A stretch of DNA of 32,242 bases, taken from Candidatus Methylomirabilales bacterium (lineage in GTDB: Bacteria; Methylomirabilota; Methylomirabilia; Methylomirabilales; CSP1-5). Shown here piece by piece: positions 1,938 to 12,180 of the stretch. Under the pieces are notes generated by a model. The model worked only from the letters and a program-made list of their open reading frames with translations. It was not told the origin of the DNA and did not search any database. The translations under genes were made by a program, and so were the position numbers. The DNA is taken from the NCBI GenBank assembly GCA_046758405.1, contig JBHIAD010000003.1, positions 1-32,242 of the forward strand, in the 5' to 3' direction. Each line of letters begins with the position of its first letter. The first letter of the stretch is position 1.

Positions 1938-4617
<2,680 letters not shown>

Positions 4618-4623
4618 GGCCCC

Positions 4624-5727
4624 TCAGATCCGCATCGGCATGATCACGCAGCGATACCCCTCCCCTTGCTTTGGTCGAAAGAGGGCTGGACTCAATGGGT
4701 CATTGAGGTGAAGCGTCACCTCTGCCTCGTTCACCACCCCGAGGAAGTCCATGATGTACCGGGCATTGAAGCCGACCCGGAGATCCGCTCCCCGGTACTC
4801 GATCAGGATCTCTTCGCGAGCATCCCCAAGATCGGCGTTGCTGCACGAGACCACCAGCCGGCCCGTCTTCAGTTCAAGAATGGTGGGTGTCGCACGATCC
4901 CCAACGATCGTTGAAGTCCGGCGCAACGCCCCCAGGAGATCCTCCTTCCGGATCATCGCCCCAGCGCTACTCGTGGTCGGTAGCACCTGCTGGTAATTCG
5001 GAAATTGGCCCTCCAAGAGGCGTGCGGTCAAGATGTTGCGATCCAGGATGAAGATGAGCTGGTTGTCCACGGCGTGCACCTGCGCCTCACCCTCTTCATC
5101 CTTGAGGAGTTTTCCCAGTTCCAGAAGGGCCTTGCGAGGGATCAGAGCTTCTGAGATCCCCTCCCCTTGCACTTCCGCACGCGGAGCGGTGGCCAGCGCA
5201 AGCCGGTGCCCGTCCGTAGCGACCATCCGCGCGTCGTCAGGCCCGATCTGGAGCATCGCCCCGTTCAGGGTGGGGCGCGTCTGATCAGTCGAGACCGCGA
5301 AGAGCGTCCTGTGAATCATCTCTTTGAGGCCCCGTCGACTCAGTGTGACCCTCGGGCCCTTAGTCGCCACGGGGAGGGTTGGAAACTCTTCCTTTGCCAG
5401 TCCCTTCACGTGAAAGGTGGAGCGCTCACACGTGATCTGGACGACGTGGTCCTCCACTTGTTTGAGGTGAATTGGAGCTGGGGGAAGTTCACGAGTGATA
5501 TCGTAGAGTCTCTTGGCCGGCAACGTGATCGCCCCCGGCTGGAGAACCTCTCCCGATAAAGTCGATTGAATCCCAACGTCAAGGTCCGTTCCAAAAACGA
5601 GAATCTGTCCATCTCTTGTCTCGAGGAGGAGGTGGGAGAGAATGGCAAGGGTCTTTTTCGCCTCCACGACCCCTTGCACTTGCCCAAGAGCTGTTAGGAA
5701 GGTATCCCGCTCGACCTGAATTTCCAT
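4624..5727 (-). CDS. dnaN: DNA polymerase III beta sliding clamp
   Basis: 367 aa; GTDLDVGI, RMVATDGHRLA, RLLEGQFPNYQQVLP, GFNARY, C-terminal VIMPMRI; GGAGGGG RBS. Confidence 0.98.
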   Translation of the reverse strand: MEIQVERDTFLTALGQVQGVVEAKKTLAILSHLLLETRDGQILVFGTDLDVGIQSTLSGEVLQPGAITLPAKRLYDITRELPPAPIHLKQVEDHVVQITCERSTFHVKGLAKEEFPTLPVATKGPRVTLSRRGLKEMIHRTLFAVSTDQTRPTLNGAMLQIGPDDARMVATDGHRLALATAPRAEVQGEGISEALIPRKALLELGKLLKDEEGEAQVHAVDNQLIFILDRNILTARLLEGQFPNYQQVLPTTSSAGAMIRKEDLLGALRRTSTIVGDRATPTILELKTGRLVVSCSNADLGDAREEILIEYRGADLRVGFNARYIMDFLGVVNEAEVTLHLNDPLSPALFRPKQGEGYRCVIMPMRI

Positions 5728-6175
5728 CTACCCCTCCAAGATGTTCCCAGTTTCCGCACTCGTACTTTCCTTGTATAGAAAGTAACTAAGAAGAGTTGAC
5801 GTAGTAGGACACGCGAGTATCGGGAAAACCAACGGAAACTCCCTGCCATAAAAAGAAACTCCTCTGTGGGGAAGTTCTAGCATGAATTCGACTTCCTTCG
5901 AAAAGGGGAGTGATGACGCTCTCCTGTCAACACACACGCAGGGCTGCCCACATCCCCATCAACATGATTCCACTCCCCTAAGACTCATGCACCTTTCCTC
6001 GAAGACTAGGGGTTGGCCGCCCTCGGATGGAGGGCGGCGCACGCATCCTTCCTCCTGGGGGAGCGTTGCTGGTATCCACACCGCCGGTTCCGCGTCATTG
6101 GCGCCAGCGGAATGGGGCGAGGCCGCCAGACCCGCATCCTGCCTGATTGAAAAGCCATCGGGTTTACACACACCC

Positions 6176-6195
6176 ATTTCCACAGTTGTGGATAA
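6176..6195. promoter_or_regulatory. Inverted pair of DnaA boxes
   Basis: ATTTCCACA-gt-TGTGGATAA; the second box is an exact reverse complement of TTATCCACA. Confidence 0.8.
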
Positions 6196-6226
6196 TATAA
6201 AAAATACGTGTATTTTCAAACGGTTA
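6196..6226 (+). promoter_or_regulatory. IHF-like site with upstream A-tract
   Basis: TTTCAAACGGTTA (6214-6226) differs from consensus WATCAANNNNTTR at one position and is preceded by an A-tract. It overlaps the palindrome AAAATAC-GT-GTATTTT (6201-6216). Confidence 0.45.
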
Positions 6227-6315
6227 CGATATGCTGAGTCGATCGGATCACCGAGCCCACACACACAAGAGGCTCCCTTAGTAAGCCCGCCCCGCTCCAC
6301 AACCCCCAACTGGAT

Positions 6316-6344
6316 TTTGTACCATAGCGCGCAGATTCTCGCAA
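6316..6344 (-). promoter_or_regulatory. sigma70-type promoter facing dnaN (the usual dnaA promoter position)
   Basis: Minus strand TTGCGA-17nt-TACAAA with TG extended -10. Confidence 0.45.
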
Positions 6345-6377
6345 TTGGAATTTATCCTCTGGGCCACTGTGTAGCGC

Positions 6378-6406
6378 TTGACAGCCCGCGAGCTGACTGC
6401 TATAAA
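6378..6406 (+). promoter_or_regulatory. sigma70 promoter of the rpmH operon
   Basis: TTGACA-17nt-TATAAA with TGn extension, 47 nt before rpmH. Confidence 0.8.
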
Positions 6407-6453
6407 AGTACGTTAGTTTTCGAGAGGGATCAGGGCTCCCCGGGGGAGAGCGG

Positions 6454-6588
6454 TTGAAGCGGACCTACCAACCCAGTCGAGTCAAGCGGAAGAGAACCCA
6501 CGGGTTTCGGGCGCGCATGCGGACGAAGGGGGGACGCCTTGTGCTCAAGCGGCGGCGCGCCAAGGGACGAAAACGACTCACCGTCTGA
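6454..6588 (+). CDS. rpmH: 50S ribosomal protein L34
   Basis: Below the ORF-track cutoff. TTG start; [44 protein letters not shown]. Confidence 0.98.
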
Positions 6589-6615
6589 CCGACCAGATCT
6601 TTCCCCGAAAGCGAT

Positions 6616-7035
6616 ATGACCGAGCGTTTCACCAAGAAGGCCCGGCTCTGCGAGACGGGGGAGTATAGGACCGCCCTGACCTGTGGGAGGCGGGTTGACG
6701 GGCGCGGATTGAGCCTGGTAACGTATCACCGTCGGCTCCCGGGGCGCCGCCTGGGTTTGGCCATCGGACGGCCTGCGGGCCAGGCGGTTGCGCGCAATCG
6801 CATCAAGCGGCGCTTGCGGGAATTCTTCCGGCGGCACGCGGCCGGGATCGTGGACGGAGTCGATCTGATCGTCATGGTGCACCGAGACCTCTCCCGTCTT
6901 TCCGGAGTTCAGTTTCGCGCGGAACTCCACGAGCTCTTTGCCAGGGCAGAGCTCTGGACGGACGGGCCTCGCCGTGGCGGGGTGGCAGATGGTGAAGCCA
7001 AGTCTTGCGGTACGGGCGACCTTCTTACTCCTTGA
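6616..7035 (+). CDS. rnpA: Ribonuclease P protein component
   Basis: RLGLAI...AVARNRIKRRLREFFR (RNR motif); follows rpmH. Confidence 0.93.
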   Translation: MTERFTKKARLCETGEYRTALTCGRRVDGRGLSLVTYHRRLPGRRLGLAIGRPAGQAVARNRIKRRLREFFRRHAAGIVDGVDLIVMVHRDLSRLSGVQFRAELHELFARAELWTDGPRRGGVADGEAKSCGTGDLLTP

Positions 7036-7216
7036 CGGTTATCGTTGGCTGGTGTCGCCCTTCCTGTCGCCGGCGTGTCGCTTCATCCCGAGCTGCTCCA
7101 CCTATGCCCGGCAGGCCTTCGAGCGACACGGGTTCCTCCGGGGCCTCTCCCTGACGGCTTGGCGGCTTCTGCGGTGTCATCCATACTGTGCGGGTGGCGA
7201 GGACTCGGTCCCCTAA
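6989..7216 (+). CDS. yidD: Membrane protein insertion efficiency factor YidD
   Basis: YRWLVSP...CRFIPSCSTY...HG...RLLRCHP...GGEDSVP; ATG at 6989. Confidence 0.93.
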   Translation: MVKPSLAVRATFLLLDGYRWLVSPFLSPACRFIPSCSTYARQAFERHGFLRGLSLTAWRLLRCHPYCAGGEDSVP

Positions 7217-7273
7217 CCTGGCACCACGGAGAGATCAGGATTCATGCGGGGCCTCGGGGACGGCGATCGTGAA

Positions 7274-8920
7274 ATGCAGTGGCGCGTGCTGCTCGCCGCC
7301 CTTCTCTCCCTCCTGATCCTCCTCGGCTACCAGTATTTGTTCGCACCTACGCCGCGCCCCACCTCTTCGCCGCCGCCGAAGGAAGAGCCCGTAGCCTCCC
7401 CACCCCTTCTCCCACAAATCCCTCAGCCGATCACCCCCCCAGTCGCAGCCCAGCCCAGCACCCCTCTCATCCAGGCCGAGCGCGAGAAAGAGATCCTGCT
7501 CGAGACCGATCTGCTTCGGGTCGTGGTCACGAACCGGGGGGGTGCCGTGAAAAGTTGGCGGCTGAGGGCGTACGAGGAGGCGGCTGGCGAGCCGGTCGAG
7601 CTCGTTGGCAGTAACGGCCAGAGTGGGCCCCTCCCCCTTGCGGCCTGGACAGCCGATGGAGAGGGGCAGAGGGGGCTGTACCGGATCATCGAGCGGCCGA
7701 CGGCCGGCGGGCCCCAGACCGTGCTGCTCCGCTTCCAGGGACGATCGCGGCTGATCATTGAGAAGCGGCTGACCCTTTACCCGAGTCGCTACCTGGCGGA
7801 CCTCGTGGTGCGGGTCGTGAACCCAGGCCTCGCACCGATCCAGACGGACCTTCGGGTCCAATGGGGGCCGGGTCTCCGGTCAGGGTCGCGGGATGTCGCG
7901 GCCAGCCTCGTGGCCGCGACTGCCTATGTGGGGGGCAAGCGAGTCCAGCCGACGTTGAAGGAGCCGGGGCAAGAGCATCGGGAGAAGGGGTCGGTGGAAT
8001 GGGCGGCCGTGCAAGACACCTATTTTGCGGCGGCGCTCCTTTCGCCCGAGGGTTCGAGCGAGTCGGTTCTGGCCCTCGACGAGCGGGGGCGGCCCATCGC
8101 CGGGCTTCTCTTCTCGGGGCTTACGATCCCGGCCGGGGGAGGGCGGGAGGTGCCCCTCGGCCTCTATGCGGGCCCGAAGGACCTGGATCGCCTGGGCGAT
8201 ATCGGCCGAGGGCTCAGCGCTCTGGTCAATCTCGGCTGGTTCGACTTCCTGGCGCGGCCTGCCCTCTGGTTGCTGAAGTTCTTCTATCGATTCACGGGTA
8301 ACTACGGAATCGCCATTATCATCATCACGATCCTGCAGAAGGTTGCCTTCTACCCCCTCACCCGCAAGAGCCTGGAGTCCATGCGGCGGATGCAAGCCCT
8401 GCAGCCGAAGATCGCCACGCTGAAGGAGCGCTACAAGAACAATCCGAAGAAGCTCAACGAGGAGACGATGGCCCTCTACAAACGGGAGGGGGCGAATCCC
8501 TTGGGGGGCTGCCTCCCGATGCTCGTGCAGATTCCGATCTTTATTGCCCTGTATAATGCCCTCTCCAGCTCCGTCGAGCTGTGGCGGGCCCCCTTCGTCC
8601 TGTGGATCAGCGACCTTTCAGCCCCGGACACCCTTTTCATGATCGAGCTGTACGGCTCGACAGTCCCGGTGCGCGTCCTACCCCTGATCATGGGGGCGAG
8701 CATGTATATTCAGCAAAAGATGACCCCGACGGCTGGGGATCCCCGCCAGGCCCAACTGATGCTGTACATGATGCCCGTCCTGTTTACCTTCCTCTTCTGG
8801 GGGTTCCCGTCGGGGCTCGTTCTCTACTGGCTGGGCAACAACCTCCTCCAGATCGGGCAGCAGCATCTCATGAACCGGCAGCAGGGGGTCGCGGCGGGCG
8901 CCGGGCAGATGGCCAGGTGA
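7274..8920 (+). CDS. yidC: Membrane protein insertase YidC
   Basis: N-terminal TM, periplasmic domain, GNYGIAIII, SMRRMQALQPK, NPLGGCLPMLVQIPIF, WISDLSAPD, PSGLVLYW; alternative start at 7244. Confidence 0.97.
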   Translation: MQWRVLLAALLSLLILLGYQYLFAPTPRPTSSPPPKEEPVASPPLLPQIPQPITPPVAAQPSTPLIQAEREKEILLETDLLRVVVTNRGGAVKSWRLRAYEEAAGEPVELVGSNGQSGPLPLAAWTADGEGQRGLYRIIERPTAGGPQTVLLRFQGRSRLIIEKRLTLYPSRYLADLVVRVVNPGLAPIQTDLRVQWGPGLRSGSRDVAASLVAATAYVGGKRVQPTLKEPGQEHREKGSVEWAAVQDTYFAAALLSPEGSSESVLALDERGRPIAGLLFSGLTIPAGGGREVPLGLYAGPKDLDRLGDIGRGLSALVNLGWFDFLARPALWLLKFFYRFTGNYGIAIIIITILQKVAFYPLTRKSLESMRRMQALQPKIATLKERYKNNPKKLNEETMALYKREGANPLGGCLPMLVQIPIFIALYNALSSSVELWRAPFVLWISDLSAPDTLFMIELYGSTVPVRVLPLIMGASMYIQQKMTPTAGDPRQAQLMLYMMPVLFTFLFWGFPSGLVLYWLGNNLLQIGQQHLMNRQQGVAAGAGQMAR

Positions 8921-8960: not shown

Positions 8961-9848
8961 ATGGGAAAGGCGGCCGTCGAGCAGATCGGTGAGCGGACTT
9001 TCCTCATCCCGGGGCACGTCAATGTCGGGATGGTCCGGGAGGGAACGGCCCTCATCTTGATCGACAGCGGGCCCGACCGGAAGGCGGCGGAGCTGGTGCT
9101 CAGGATTGCGAAGGAGATGAAGGGAGACGTCCGGGCCATCATTAACACCCACGCCCACGCCGAGCACTACGGGGCAAACCACTACATCCTCCGCCAGACC
9201 GGAGCCGAAATCTTCGCCCCCCCTCTCGAAGAGGCCCTTATCCGGAATCCAGATGTGGAGCCCCTCTACCTCTACGGCGCCTTCCCACCCCTTGCCCTTC
9301 AGGACCCCCACATCCTCGCCCGACCAAGCCGGGTGGACCACGTACTCCGGGGGCCGGTGATCATCGACGGAGTGACTCTTACGCCGGTTCCACTGCCGGG
9401 CCATACGCCGAATCAGATGGGGGTCGTGGTCGATGACATCTTCTTCGTTGCGGATGCCCTCTTCAGTCGGGAGGCCGTCCTTGAGCACCGGCTGATCTAC
9501 TATTACGATCCCCTCAGACACCGCGAGACCCTTGCCTTTCTCTCCCGCCAGGAGGCGCGCCTGTTCGTCCCCGCCCACGGCCGGCCCACGCATGACATAC
9601 GGGGCTTGATTGACGCCAACCGGAAGAACCTGGAGGAGACGGCGGAGGCGATCCTGGCTGCCATCAGCGTCCCCCGGAGTGCCGAGCAGGTCCTGGAGCT
9701 GCTCGCCGGCCAGTTCGATCTCGACATGAGCTTTGAGGCGTACTGTCTCTACCTCTGCGCCGTCAAGGCCCACCTCTCGGCCATGAACCGGGAAGGAAGG
9801 GCTGCCTGGGAGCTCGACAAGGGCTGCCTGCTGTGGAAGCGGACCTAG
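8961..9848 (+). CDS. MBL-fold metallo-hydrolase
   Basis: LIDSG, NTHAHAEH (HxHxDH with D->E), PGHT, ADA, PAHG motifs; short helical C-terminal domain. Confidence 0.88.
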   Translation: MGKAAVEQIGERTFLIPGHVNVGMVREGTALILIDSGPDRKAAELVLRIAKEMKGDVRAIINTHAHAEHYGANHYILRQTGAEIFAPPLEEALIRNPDVEPLYLYGAFPPLALQDPHILARPSRVDHVLRGPVIIDGVTLTPVPLPGHTPNQMGVVVDDIFFVADALFSREAVLEHRLIYYYDPLRHRETLAFLSRQEARLFVPAHGRPTHDIRGLIDANRKNLEETAEAILAAISVPRSAEQVLELLAGQFDLDMSFEAYCLYLCAVKAHLSAMNREGRAAWELDKGCLLWKRT

Positions 9849-10489
9849 GGGTCCGCCTCGCTCGCGAGAGCGGGCGGCTCGGCCTCTCTCTCCCCCCCTC
9901 CCAGATCGGGGACCTCCTGCGCTATATGGACCTCCTCTGGCGGTGGAACGCCCGGATGAATCTGGTTGGGTTTCGGGATCGGACGGTCCTGCTGACCGAG
10001 GGAGTGATCGACGCCCTGACCCTTCTGTCTGCCTTCACGCCCCACCCTGGGCAGCGGCTCCTCGATGTGGGGAGCGGGGCGGGACTCCCGGGGATTCCCC
10101 TCAAGGTGGCCGCGCCGGAGATCGACGCAACCCTCTTGGAGCCGATCCGGAAGCGCGTCTCCTTTCTGCTCACCGTGGTGCGGGAGCTCGGACTCACGCG
10201 GATCCGGGTGGTTCGCGGGCGAAGCGAAGAGATCAGCTCCCTGGAGGAGCACCGGCGGGCCTATGAGATCGTCACGGCCCGGGCCGTTGCCGGGGTTGAG
10301 GAGGCCGCCCGGACGGCCGCCCCCTTTGTGGCTCCGCATGGCCTCCTGATTCTCCCACGAGGCCAAGAGGCCGCTAGGGAGGCCGAGGGGTTGAGGGGAG
10401 GGAGCGCCGGAGGGCTCGTGGTCGATCGGCTCCTACCGAGCCCTCTTGGGAGGGGGGATCGCCATCTCCTCCTCCTGCGCGCCCCCTAA
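9833..10489 (+). CDS. rsmG: 16S rRNA m7G527 methyltransferase RsmG (GidB)
   Basis: WNARMNL, LDVGSGAGLPGIPL, KRVSFL, TARAV; located directly before parA. Confidence 0.93.
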   Translation: MEADLGVRLARESGRLGLSLPPSQIGDLLRYMDLLWRWNARMNLVGFRDRTVLLTEGVIDALTLLSAFTPHPGQRLLDVGSGAGLPGIPLKVAAPEIDATLLEPIRKRVSFLLTVVRELGLTRIRVVRGRSEEISSLEEHRRAYEIVTARAVAGVEEAARTAAPFVAPHGLLILPRGQEAAREAEGLRGGSAGGLVVDRLLPSPLGRGDRHLLLLRAP

Positions 10490-10505
10490 TGTTTCACGTG
10501 AAACA
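10490..10505. promoter_or_regulatory. parS centromere site
   Basis: Perfect palindrome TGTTTCACGTGAAACA, the canonical parS consensus, immediately after the rsmG stop and upstream of parA. Confidence 0.95.
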
Positions 10506-10580
10506 GTGCTCCCCGAAACCCCTTCCGCCCCCCCGAGGGGTTGTGCTATGGTCTTCGGAGCCTCCTGGGAGGAGGCGCGG

Positions 10581-11357
10581 GTGGGTCGAATCATCGCGGT
10601 CGCGAATCAGAAGGGGGGGGTGGGCAAGACGACAACGGTCGTGAACCTCGCAGCCTGTTTCGGGGCGGCGGAGCAGCCCACCCTGCTCGTCGACATGGAC
10701 CCCCAGGGTAACGCCTCCACCGGGGTCGGGATTTCGCGCGAACGACTCGGACCGAGCATCTATGAGGTGCTCCTGGGGCAGGCGAAGGCGGGCGAGGCGA
10801 TCGAGGGGACGGAGGTCCCAGCCCTGAAGGTTCTCCCGTCTGGCCCGGGCCTTCTCGGCGCCGAGGTGGAGCTGGTCACCGAGGAGGGGCGCGAGTGGCG
10901 GCTAAAGGAAGCCCTGGCGGAGCTCCGGGGCGATTTCACCTACACCGTGATCGACTGCCCCCCCTCTCTGGGCCTGCTCACGCTCAATGCCCTGAATGCG
11001 GCCGACTCGGTCCTCATCCCGCTGCAATGCGAGTACTATGCCCTCGAAGGGCTCTCGCAGTTGTTAGTGACGATCCGTCTGATCCGCCGCCGCTATAACC
11101 CCGCCCTACAGATCGAAGGTGTCGTCCTCACCATGTACGACCCGCGCCCCAATCTCAGCCGTCAAGTCGAGGCGGACATCCGGAAGAACTTCCCCGGTCG
11201 GGTCTTTCGGACGGTGGTGCCCCGGAGCATTCGGCTGAGCGAGGCCCCGAGCTTCGGGAAACCGATTCTCCTCTCCGCCAGCCGGTCCGCAGGGGCCCGG
11301 GCGTATCTTTCACTCGCCAGGGAGGTGATTGATGGGAGCACGGCAGGCCCTCGGTAG
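10581..11357 (+). CDS. parA: Chromosome partitioning ATPase ParA/Soj
   Basis: ANQKGGVGKTT, DMDPQGNAS, DCPPSLGLLT, QCEYYALEG, SEAPSFGKP; GTG at 10581 with GGAGGAGG RBS. Confidence 0.97.
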   Translation: MGRIIAVANQKGGVGKTTTVVNLAACFGAAEQPTLLVDMDPQGNASTGVGISRERLGPSIYEVLLGQAKAGEAIEGTEVPALKVLPSGPGLLGAEVELVTEEGREWRLKEALAELRGDFTYTVIDCPPSLGLLTLNALNAADSVLIPLQCEYYALEGLSQLLVTIRLIRRRYNPALQIEGVVLTMYDPRPNLSRQVEADIRKNFPGRVFRTVVPRSIRLSEAPSFGKPILLSASRSAGARAYLSLAREVIDGSTAGPR

Positions 11358-12180
11358 GGGGCTCGAGGCCCTGATCCCCCCCAGCCGGGAGGAGGAGGGG
11401 CGCGGTGTGCTCGAGGTGCCGGTGGCGGCCATCCGGCCGAGCCCCCTGCAGCCGCGGAAGCACTTTGACGCCAAGGCCATTCAAGAGCTCGCCCAGTCCA
11501 TCCGCACCCACGGAGTCCTCTCGCCGGTCATCCTCCGGGAGGCGGGTGACCGCTTTGAGCTGGTGGCCGGCGAGCGGCGGCTGAGAGCGGCCAGGCTCGC
11601 TGGTCTGGAGAGAATTCCCGCGGTGATTCGTGAAGTCGGGATGAGCGCCATGCTCGAGATGGCGTTGATCGAGAACATCCAGCGGGCGGACCTGAATCCG
11701 ATCGAGGAGGCGGAGGTCTACAACCGGCTGATTCAGGAGTTCGGCCTGACTCAGGAGGAGGTCGCGGCACGGGTCGGTCGGGAGCGCTCGTCGGTGGCAA
11801 ATACCTTGAGGCTGCTGCGACTTCACCCGACACTCCACCAGGCGCTCATCGAGGGGAGACTCTCGGCGGGACAGGCGCGGCCCCTGCTCAGCCTCGAGGG
11901 CCGGGAGCAGGTCCGGGCAGGGGAGCAGGTCATTCGCCGAGCCCTGTCGGCGCGGGCGGTCGAGGTCCTCGTCAAGCGACTCCGGGGGCAAGACGGGATT
12001 CGCAAGGTGAAGGCCAAGCCAGCCTCCCCCCAGCTCAGGGCCCTGGAGGAGGGGCTCCGGCGCGCCCTCGCCACGAAGGTCCGGATTGTTCGCTCGGGAC
12101 GGCGCGGGCGGATCGAGATAGATTTTTACTCCGATGACGATCTGACCCGTCTGGTCGACCTGATCCGGAGACGCAGGTAG
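11332..12180 (+). CDS. parB: Chromosome partitioning protein ParB/Spo0J
   Basis: ALGRGLEALI, QPRKHF, AGERRLRAA, ENIQRADLNPIEEA, HTH RSSVANTLRLL; GGAGGT RBS. Confidence 0.97.
   Translation: MGARQALGRGLEALIPPSREEEGRGVLEVPVAAIRPSPLQPRKHFDAKAIQELAQSIRTHGVLSPVILREAGDRFELVAGERRLRAARLAGLERIPAVIREVGMSAMLEMALIENIQRADLNPIEEAEVYNRLIQEFGLTQEEVAARVGRERSSVANTLRLLRLHPTLHQALIEGRLSAGQARPLLSLEGREQVRAGEQVIRRALSARAVEVLVKRLRGQDGIRKVKAKPASPQLRALEEGLRRALATKVRIVRSGRRGRIEIDFYSDDDLTRLVDLIRRRR

Follow-up and report, generated by a model that had tools for sequence, protein, structure and literature searches.

The 726-bp non-coding gap between the divergent genes rpmH and dnaN (positions 5728–6453) is, with a probability of roughly three in four, a DnaA-dependent, dnaN-linked replication origin, on which DnaA made from another locus acts in trans after an ordinary relocation of its gene. 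The gap lies in a stretch of 32,242 nucleotides of a Candidatus Methylomirabilales genome (hereafter the window), and it holds DnaA boxes without holding dnaA. The finding reduces to a simple relocation because dnaA is intact elsewhere in the same genome, and because the separation of dnaA from dnaN is normal for the clade.

To the left of the gap, on the minus strand, dnaN (4624–5727) encodes a beta clamp of 367 aa in which all three DNA_pol3_beta domains were matched, and beyond it lie gyrB (1938–4388; Pfam DNA_gyraseB, Toprim, HATPase_c and GyrB_C) and gyrA (3–1895; DNA_topoisoIV, E 2e-163, and DNA_gyraseA_C), the latter truncated by the contig end. To the right, on the plus strand, follow rpmH for ribosomal protein L34, with a TTG start (6454–6588; Ribosomal_L34, E 3.6e-24, 1–44 of 44), rnpA for the RNase P protein (6616–7035; Ribonuclease_P), yidC (7244–8920; 60KD_IMP and YidC_periplas), rsmG, or gidB (9833–10489; GidB), parA (10446–11357; AAA_31/CbiA) and parB (11329–12180; ParB_N, HTH_ParB and ParB_C). 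A perfect parS, TGTTTCACGTGAAACA, occupies 10490–10505 and is the sole site in the window within three mismatches of the parS consensus; together with parAB it lies 4 kb from the gap. The genes point away from the gap on both sides (3/3 on the minus strand to the left, 16/17 on the plus strand to the right). The original prediction, made from the sequence alone, had put rpmH and dnaN about 725 bp apart, too close to accommodate dnaA, with gyrB and gyrA beyond dnaN, parS and parAB nearby and transcription co-oriented, all of which agrees with these measurements. Its recF is not there as a gene: no intact recF was found in the gyrA-gyrB-dnaN block, and what is left is a relic of 39 codons (4489–4605, minus strand) in a dnaN-gyrB spacer of 235 bp, detected as a six-frame match to positions 38–76 of the recF model TIGR00611 (24.4 bits, E 1.2e-5), far under the cut-off of 172 bits. 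The GC content of the gap is 0.54 vs 0.65 for the contig. A 191-aa open reading frame inside it has no Pfam match, and the only Rfam hit, a U6atac RNA below threshold (18.1 bits vs 33, E 0.066), was taken as chance. A probable rpmH promoter (TTGACA, 17 nt, TATAAA; 6378–6406, plus strand) was read by eye; its TTGACA is kept in the family alignment, and the candidate is absent from the output of the consensus promoter scan. The sequencing runs that contain the window's DNA are labelled hydrothermal vent metagenome, and the four strong holders all come from one study.

The absence of dnaA was predicted without a choice between relocation and loss, the latter implying DnaA-independent initiation. 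On the window's contig the absence holds, as none of the DnaA domains PF00308, PF08299 and PF11638 gives a match there even at E <= 10; genome-wide it does not. The profile search of the genome and its relatives that had been proposed as a check recovered an intact dnaA on another contig (G000:C43:3720–5069, minus strand, 449 aa) with matches to Bac_DnaA (E 3.7e-70, 1–161 of 162), Bac_DnaA_C (1.1e-28, 3–69 of 69) and DnaA_N (4.8e-17), and this protein, full-length and with its three Pfam domains end to end, would be expected to function. Its identity to relatives is 71% within the family, 66–67% within the order and 51–59% in the sister orders, and the corresponding values for DnaN are 59%, 48–53% and 38–51%; the identity of DnaA thus declines with distance like that of DnaN, and therefore the dnaA of C43 is the lineage's own gene. 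Relocation stands, and loss, to which the empty space between rpmH and dnaN and the lack of any relic on the window's contig had pointed, becomes extremely improbable in the face of a full-length gene in the same genome, of dnaA in 37 of the 41 genomes of the order sample, and of DnaA boxes kept at both loci. One of the four order genomes that gave no dnaA match is 92% complete (G003), and the other three are 63–68% complete.

A collapsed or misjoined assembly had been named as what could undo the prediction. The window's genome is a fragmented metagenome bin (210 contigs, 74% complete), and the GC content of C43 is 0.626 vs 0.644 for the genome, so that a faulty joint at the gap, or a misbinned dnaA contig, might be suspected. 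However, Logan contigs of two runs, X1 (5,371 bp) and X3 (5,043 bp), each cover positions 4800–7300 unbroken and free of joints, indels and loose ends; X3 comes from another sample of X1's study and shows three base differences, and X1 may represent the source sample. The gap is not a misassembly, because independent contigs from two samples span it. The binning of C43 is likewise supported by an ntrC-dnaA neighbourhood that recurs in seven of the nine family relatives fetched (in one it is cut by a contig end, and in one it was not seen), and by an estimated contamination of 0.05%. As rpmH and dnaN are also neighbors in 18 of the 20 order relatives fetched, a closed genome included, an artefact of assembly or binning is scarcely credible.

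The comparison with relatives shows how general the arrangement is. Both genes are present in 34 of the 40 order relatives searched (NC10/Methylomirabilota), and dnaA is adjacent to dnaN in none of the 34 (all 32 remain split when the unpublished G012 and G021 are left out); in 33 genomes the two genes lie on separate contigs, and in G036, a closed genome, ~206 kb separates them. In the sister orders within this class, dnaA adjoins dnaN in 43 of the 45 genomes that have both (41/43 without the unpublished G056 and G072), the order rpmH-dnaA-dnaN-recF is kept, and rpmH lies divergently upstream of dnaA in all 20 genomes fetched. Because the sister orders keep dnaA in place, its departure can be assigned to the root of a single order, in which dnaA moved, recF was mostly lost and the origin DNA is still in place. 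The rpmH-dnaN spacer measures 465–1086 bp in the 18 relatives mentioned above; the two exceptions are a contig end and a locus lacking an L34 gene within 2.5 kb, and two records titled NC10 have the identical rpmH-dnaN arrangement.

The element that links these spacers is a module of three adjacent DnaA boxes, found in the window at 6164–6195. It consists of a degenerate box TTACACACA (6164–6172), a box ATTTCCACA (6176–6184) and a box TGTGGATAA (6187–6195), which is a perfect TTATCCACA on the minus strand; the perfect TTATCCACA has just two sites in the 1.66-Mb genome, one of them within 6176–6195, and the full triple-box module is unique in it. The module is present in 19 of 19 rpmH-dnaN spacers of the order, at both named NC10 loci and in 19 of 20 rpmH-dnaA spacers of the sister orders, and both the family alignment and the module scan show that its boxes are kept in position and orientation. 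The commonest 8-mer in the spacers of the order is TTTCCACA (17/19), and the commonest 9-mer is TTTTCCACA. Elsewhere in the gap there are a box GTATCCACA with one mismatch (6072–6080, plus strand), which aligns to a kept TGTGGAAAC box of family relatives, a weak box TTCCCCACA (5865–5873, minus strand, two mismatches) and a degenerate box TTTTCCCGA (5820–5828, minus strand, two mismatches). Family relatives have a good dnaN-proximal box ATTTCCACA beside the site of the last of these, without a counterpart in the window. At a distance of 9 bp from the degenerate box, a trio-like element (5802–5810) reads GTC-CTA-CTA on the minus strand, that is TAG-TAG on the plus strand, corresponding to two 3'-GAT-5' DnaA-trios. 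Strong boxes had been foreseen near 6160–6195 and degenerate boxes with trios near 5775–5975, and both were recovered.

The numbers of boxes were treated with caution. Three boxes lie within one mismatch of TT[T/G/A]TCCACA in the 726 bp (one of them perfect) vs 0.21 expected (Poisson P = 0.0013), and three weaker boxes are present in addition. With clade variants, at least three boxes are reached at ten loci in the genome (129 of 60,285 windows), and with the E. coli consensus the gap is not singled out in the genome-wide count, every window having two boxes or fewer. Because ten loci tie at three, box number was dropped as a main argument; the origin signal in the gap is the conservation and arrangement of its boxes, not their number. 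The BUS rule, as given in PMC8287927, asks for a box with at most two mismatches, a spacer of 0–16 bp and at least three NAN trios (3'-NAN-5') on the correct strand, and the window is a borderline case, with TTTTCCCGA (two mismatches), the 9-bp spacer and GTC-CTA-CTA. Shuffled sequences produced some BUS in 12% of trials and at least two CTA trios in 0/200; among real spacers, a BUS is present in 10 of 19 in the order and in two of five dnaA-dnaN spacers in the sister orders. CTAC/CTA repeats are found at the equivalent place in the relatives and in the sister dnaA-dnaN spacers, which are 163–171 bp long in the three of five measured by script and contain a box, CTAC repeats and AT-rich sequence (the dnaA stop was located by script in these three, and in G054 and G087 the tail was read by eye). 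Compared with the sister rpmH-dnaA and dnaA-dnaN spacers, the gap is consistent with the proposal that it retains the two halves of a bipartite origin.

In this region, the two 30-mers with the lowest duplex stability each flank a group of boxes. The least stable (6191–6220, dG -30.3, in the bottom 0.006% genome-wide) belongs to an AT-rich stretch beside the module (6191–6228), and the second (5763–5792, dG -32.4, in the bottom 0.024% of 30-mers genome-wide) to an AT-rich stretch adjoining dnaN (5763–5800); both stretches are candidate unwinding elements, the second for the dnaN-proximal half. A promoter scan offers another reading of the stretch by the module, namely a sigma-70-like promoter TTGAAA-16-TATTAT on the minus strand (6219 to 6192), of which the -10 element overlaps the perfect box in the layout of a classic operator. 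Since this stretch also reads as a promoter, the module could serve as an operator and not as part of the origin. The wider explanation built on this is that the origin travelled with dnaA or is now close to it, and that the gap is a promoter pair with a DnaA operator, in which the former dnaA promoter now drives dnaN under DnaA control. The sister orders lend it some support, as the module lies there, in most genomes, in a short GC-rich rpmH-dnaA gap directly before the dnaA start. So does the region upstream of dnaA in the order itself, where a second copy of the module occurs in 9 of 22 genomes, where genus g8 has five exact boxes vs one or two in its rpmH-dnaN gap, and where G019 has 11 boxes. 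Within the window's family, however, that region holds only two to four boxes, one of them exact (three boxes in 7/9 relatives, two in G000), and a conserved TTGACA promoter precedes them, a layout suggestive of autoregulation.

GC skew bears on the same choice. Among the 71 contigs that reach 8 kb, the one carrying the gap has the strongest skew switch, at ~6400 (from -0.071 on its left to +0.052 on its right; -0.063 and +0.040 once corrected for strand); this was measured with no more than 5.7 kb of sequence left of the gap, and at a point where gene orientation switches as well; the coding-strand effect in this genome is ~0.003 (14 contigs) vs a replication component of ~0.045. In the family relatives G008, G004 and G001, the cumulative minimum lies within 1 kb of the rpmH-dnaN gap (in G008 the strand-corrected component passes from -0.042 to +0.041), so that all four family genomes, G000 included, switch at this gap. 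No switch was seen at dnaA in G000, where C43 has positive skew to either side of the gene, or in G004 and G008; G001 has a local switch there. The skew check that had been called for thus places the switch at the gap within the family and is ambiguous between the two loci in G036, G033 and G037, which belong to other families. The closed genome G036 is flat from ~2.43 Mb to 25 kb, also after coding-strand correction, with two local minima, the shallower at the dnaN gap and the deeper 7–25 kb past dnaA, and G033 has a local minimum ~11 kb past dnaA, both as expected if the origin had gone with the gene. The terminus of G036, at ~1.1–1.2 Mb, is nevertheless opposite 2.5 Mb, where dnaN lies, and not opposite dnaA. 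In view of this, of the family skew and of the parS and parAB beside the rpmH-dnaN gap, an origin that moved with dnaA appears unlikely, and the proposal that the gap is still the origin is supported for the window's family by the skew switch, the kept module and parS/parAB.

A variant of relocation, in our judgement quite improbable, is that dnaA took a copy of the module along when it left, creating two paralogous box clusters that may both act in initiation. If this were true, the two clusters would be alternative or dual origins, or an origin and a strong DnaA-titrating site, and both the zone without net skew between the clusters of G036 and its second minimum past dnaA would be explained.

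In the preferred reading, that of an origin left in place at the rpmH-dnaN gap, the ancestral layout would have been rpmH, boxes, dnaA, then boxes, trios and AT-rich sequence, and dnaN, and dnaA would have left in the common ancestor of the order. With dnaA no longer between its two halves, the origin would therefore have become continuous. DnaA would be made from the intact gene on the other contig and, acting in trans, would bind the module at 6164–6195 and the weaker boxes at 6072, 5865 and 5820. It would then open one of the two AT-rich stretches, more likely the one adjoining dnaN; that side has two 3'-GAT-5' trios at a distance of 9 bp from a box, which resembles the dnaA-dnaN half of bipartite origins. 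Replication would run outward along both diverging gene sets, starting presumably from the gap and not from the cluster upstream of dnaA.

The closest parallel is provided by cyanobacteria. A dnaN-side oriC with dnaA elsewhere is described for Synechococcus elongatus PCC 7942, Anabaena PCC 7120, Microcystis and Cyanothece (PMC4009838, PMC2650636, PMC4674748), and it is proposed that translocation of dnaA left origins linked to dnaN alone (PMC4009838/PMC2650636). The same layout, with a predicted dnaN-side oriC and a distant dnaA throughout a clade, is found in the window's order, and the preferred cyanobacterial box of those accounts, TTTTCCACA, is also the commonest 9-mer here. In contrast to cyanobacteria, the other flank of the window is still rpmH-rnpA-yidC, the ancestral frame being kept with only dnaA missing; the event can be dated to the root of a single order; another copy of the module appears to have travelled with dnaA; and the origin is a prediction from sequence. 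In the bipartite origins of Bacillus subtilis, Clostridioides difficile and Helicobacter pylori, oriC1 lies upstream of dnaA, and oriC2, with DnaA-trios and the unwinding site, downstream (PMC7561715, PMC8287927). The sister orders, with rnpA-rpmH-dnaA-dnaN and a box module upstream of dnaA, resemble this, and the window combines the two kinds of element in a single gap; the strand of its trios and their site upstream of dnaN match the trio run of C. difficile (PMC7561715), whereas the window has few trios (two canonical) and a degenerate adjacent box.

For Sorangium cellulosum, the predicted oriC is flanked by dnaN and a kinase gene and is remote from dnaA (PMC2650636). That genome is likewise rich in GC, and its dnaN-side origin is predicted from skew and a few boxes; it differs in the flanking gene, in the box motif TTATCCCCC, and in being a single-genome prediction, whereas the present one is a comparison at clade level. 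Two clusters of DnaA boxes on one chromosome, one of them near the dnaA region, recall the dual chromosomal origins of Pseudomonas aeruginosa, predicted also in Halomonadaceae (10.1101/2025.08.05.668638). In the window's family, however, the skew switches at the rpmH-dnaN gap only, and there is no sign of dual firing. In Escherichia coli, the origin has moved off the rpmH-dnaA-dnaN block and the block is intact, whereas in the window's order the gene moved and the origin stayed. What the two share is a DnaA that acts in trans, its gene lying away from the origin; oriC of E. coli is described in PMC8287927 as apart from dnaA.

Initiation without DnaA would be striking, and this tempting false lead is removed, as the window's genome has DnaA. 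The NC10 order is poorly studied and mostly uncultured, and includes nitrite-dependent methane oxidisers; the titles and abstracts of the papers retrieved on dnaA in Methylomirabilota and on oriC in NC10 contained nothing on origin layout in this group. A placed origin for this order aids genome finishing, the orientation of replichores and estimates of growth rate from coverage. The order also presents a clean evolutionary case, in which the sister orders keep the block while dnaA moved and the origin DNA stayed, and the duplicated box module offers a natural test of which part belongs to the origin and which to the dnaA operator.

The contig of the window (C3) belongs to a metagenome-assembled genome of 1,656,875 bp in 210 contigs (completeness 74%, contamination 0.05%), and the genes on both sides of the proposed origin, all with clear Pfam matches, diverge from it. 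On the minus strand lie dnaN (4624–5727), gyrB (1938–4388) and gyrA (3–1895, cut by the contig end), and on the plus strand rpmH (6454–6588), rnpA (6616–7035), yidC (7244–8920), a metallo-beta-lactamase-fold gene (8961–9848), rsmG (9833–10489), parA (10446–11357) and parB (11329–12180). The gap between dnaN and rpmH measures 726 bp (5728–6453), with a GC content of 0.54 against 0.65 contig-wide. The original prediction held that dnaA is missing from this gap. This core observation is correct, since three DnaA domain models, searched against all six frames of the genome (E ≤ 10), gave no match on C3, and a 191-aa open reading frame inside the gap has no match in Pfam. The misassembly that the prediction had named as a possible objection is ruled out by two independent public assemblies, of sequencing runs X1 and X3, whose contigs (5,371 and 5,043 bp) each span positions 4800–7300 in one piece with no joints, indels or loose ends over that interval. 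X1 may be the source sample; X3 is another sample of the same study, with three base differences.

As to whether dnaA had been relocated or lost, relocation stands and loss falls away. Domain-model searches of the whole genome found one full dnaA, on contig C43 (3720–5069, minus strand; 449 aa), whose product covers positions 1–63 of 65 of DnaA_N, 1–161 of 162 of Bac_DnaA (E 3.7e-70) and 3–69 of 69 of Bac_DnaA_C. It is flanked by a PDZ protein gene on one side, and by genes for a sigma-54 activator and a histidine kinase on the other; an ntrC-like gene followed by dnaA is kept in seven of the nine family relatives fetched; of the other two, one gave a match truncated by its contig end and the other had none. 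DnaA identity is 71% within the family, 66–67% to other families of the order and 51–59% to sister orders of the class, and DnaN identity drops with distance in the same order (59%, 48–53% and 38–51%, respectively). Therefore, the C43 gene is the lineage's own dnaA, which has moved, rather than a foreign replacement. By GC skew, the coding strand of dnaA is the C-rich strand in this genome as well as in relatives G004, G008 and G036, and hence dnaA at its new site appears to be transcribed against replication. The sole further DnaA-domain match in the genome is a 321-aa protein on contig C9 (18916–19881, plus strand), in which an IS200-like Y1 transposase domain is fused to the C-terminal HTH DNA-binding domain of DnaA (32.9 bits). 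Two full-length dnaA matches each were found in G017 of the order and in G060, G069 and G080 of sister orders, and in these last three one copy adjoins dnaN and the other lies elsewhere; such doubling could represent a duplication stage like that preceding relocation, or bin contamination.

The separation of dnaA from dnaN proved to be the norm of the clade, being found in all of the 34 order relatives (out of 40) that have both genes, or 32/32 without the unpublished G012 and G021. The two genes are on separate contigs in 33 of the 34, and ~206 kb apart in the closed genome G036 (2,752,854 bp). Divergent from dnaN over 465–1086 bp, rpmH is retained in 18 of the 20 order relatives whose dnaN-upstream regions were fetched; in one exception the contig ends 24 bp upstream of dnaN, and in the other no L34 gene occurs within 2.5 kb. 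Two public "candidate division NC10 bacterium" loci, the nearest named relatives (DnaN identity 51–52%), likewise read rpmH–gap–dnaN–gyrB. Among sister orders, both genes are present in 45 of 47 sampled genomes, and dnaN directly follows dnaA in 43 of these 45 (41/43 when the unpublished G056 and G072 are left out), with both exceptions at contig ends; rpmH is divergent just upstream of dnaA in all 20 sister genomes fetched. As the sister orders keep this frame and the order is split throughout, the canonical rnpA–rpmH/dnaA–dnaN frame is ancestral, with a single departure of dnaA at the base of the order. The original prediction also counted recF in the block, mistakenly, as the 235-bp dnaN–gyrB spacer holds only a 39-codon relic (4489–4605, minus strand; recF model positions 38–76) scoring 24.4 bits, where the cut-off is 172. 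Scores above this cut-off were obtained in one of 23 order relatives (G017) and in 40 of 47 sister-order genomes (38/45 without G056 and G072), in most of which recF lies directly downstream of dnaN. Thus, the order seems to have lost recF in addition to moving dnaA, and the relic in the window shows this loss in progress.

The commonest 8-mer over 19 order spacers, TTTCCACA (46 copies, in 17/19), is the core of the TTTTCCACA-type DnaA box. From the family alignment and a pattern count, we defined a module consisting of a plus-strand box, 2 nt, a minus-strand box, 5–7 nt and then TGTGNNTAA, which is present in 19/19 rpmH–dnaN spacers of the order, in both named NC10 loci and in 19/20 rpmH–dnaA spacers of sister orders. 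In the window, it occupies 6164–6195 and is unique as a full module within the genome; the perfect TTATCCACA that forms part of it occurs at just one other genomic site. On the rpmH side of the module, the 30-mer at 6191–6220 has the lowest stability in the region and ranks in the bottom 0.006% genome-wide. A sigma-70-like promoter (TTGAAA–16 nt–TATTAT; 6192–6219, minus strand), whose −10 element overlaps the perfect DnaA box, is aimed at dnaN and may be the former dnaA promoter, now placing dnaN under DnaA control.

Near dnaN in relatives, CTAC/CTA repeats and an AT-rich run come after a DnaA box, and the same kind of element occurs in the dnaA–dnaN spacer of sister orders (163–171 bp in three of five by script, the other two by eye). 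The window has a degenerate box, TTTTCCCGA (5820–5828), GTC-CTA-CTA, i.e., two 3'-GAT-5' DnaA-trios (5802–5810, minus strand), and an AT-rich stretch (5763–5800) that ranks among the lowest 0.024% of the genome in stability. Under the rule for a basal unwinding system excerpted from PMC8287927 (box with ≤2 mismatches, spacer of 0–16 bp, ≥3 NAN trios), the window is a candidate that passes minimally, and the rule holds in 10/19 order spacers and 2/5 sister spacers; at least two CTA trios arose in ≤1% of sequence shuffles. In Clostridioides difficile, a CTA/TTA triplet run in the dnaA–dnaN spacer is described, in an excerpt of PMC7561715, as the DnaA-trio upstream of the unwinding site. The layout in the window agrees with the earlier suggestion that both halves of a bipartite origin persist, now in a single gap.

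None of the other contigs among the 71 that measure ≥8 kb switches skew as strongly as C3, where the values are −0.071 left and +0.052 right of position 6400, with only 5.7 kb of sequence left of the gap. Coding-strand bias could imitate such a switch, and the coding-strand and replication terms were therefore separated (~0.003, from 14 contigs, and ~0.045); strand-corrected skew is −0.063 left and +0.040 right on C3, and positive on both sides of dnaA on C43. The cumulative skew minimum lies ≤1 kb from the same gap in family relatives G008, G004 and G001, the corrected term in G008 passing from −0.042 to +0.041 across it. A sustained switch at dnaA is absent in G004 and G008, and G001 has just a local 35-kb block. 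In addition, a perfect 16-bp parS (TGTTTCACGTGAAACA, 10490–10505) is located at the rsmG end, within the annotated parA start and shortly before parB; no other site in the window has ≤3 mismatches, and parS lies with parAB ~4 kb from the gap. Because the C3 switch, the family minima, parS/parAB and the diverging genes concur, we consider, in keeping with the prediction, that the gap is the replication origin in this family, with a probability of roughly 0.75.

An origin that left with dnaA, the rpmH–dnaN gap being a promoter plus operator, is unlikely, and draws on several observations. Closed G036 has one skew minimum at the gap and one 7–25 kb past dnaA, both persisting after correction, and a flat zone of ~350 kb without net skew that begins at ~2.43 Mb and, across the sequence start, reaches 25 kb (loci L085–L105); its terminus at ~1.1–1.2 Mb is nevertheless opposite dnaN at 2.55 Mb. 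Skew in G033 and G037 is no clearer. A second minimum 4–47 kb past dnaA is also seen in G033, G037, G001 and G008. The gap has a modest three boxes, a count shared by ten loci of the genome, the left flank is short, and the AT-rich stretch by the module can be read as the promoter toward dnaN. Moreover, the DNA preceding dnaA at its new site (C43 5170–5230; in relatives, L145–L164) holds a further copy of the module, between a conserved TTGACA promoter and the start codon; this second copy is present in 9/22 order genomes and has five exact boxes in genus g8. Evidently, dnaA moved together with its upstream region. In the family, the copy is degenerate, with two to four boxes, and its position downstream of the promoter looks like autoregulation. 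That both box clusters act in initiation is less probable still.

The preferred reading, an origin remaining at the gap, has precedents. Excerpts of a review (PMC4009838) give an origin beside dnaN with dnaA elsewhere as the rule in cyanobacteria, where TTTTCCACA is preferred too, and propose the same history, with dnaA translocated out of a dnaA–dnaN origin; a further predicted origin of this kind, in Sorangium, is described in an excerpt of PMC2650636. The titles and abstracts of the papers searched contained nothing on origin layout in NC10/Methylomirabilota. Unlike these systems, the order keeps the rpmH flank at the origin, its dnaA departure is datable against sister orders, and its box module is duplicated. 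A dnaN-linked origin with a distant dnaA is thus of a kind already known, to which this order adds a case.
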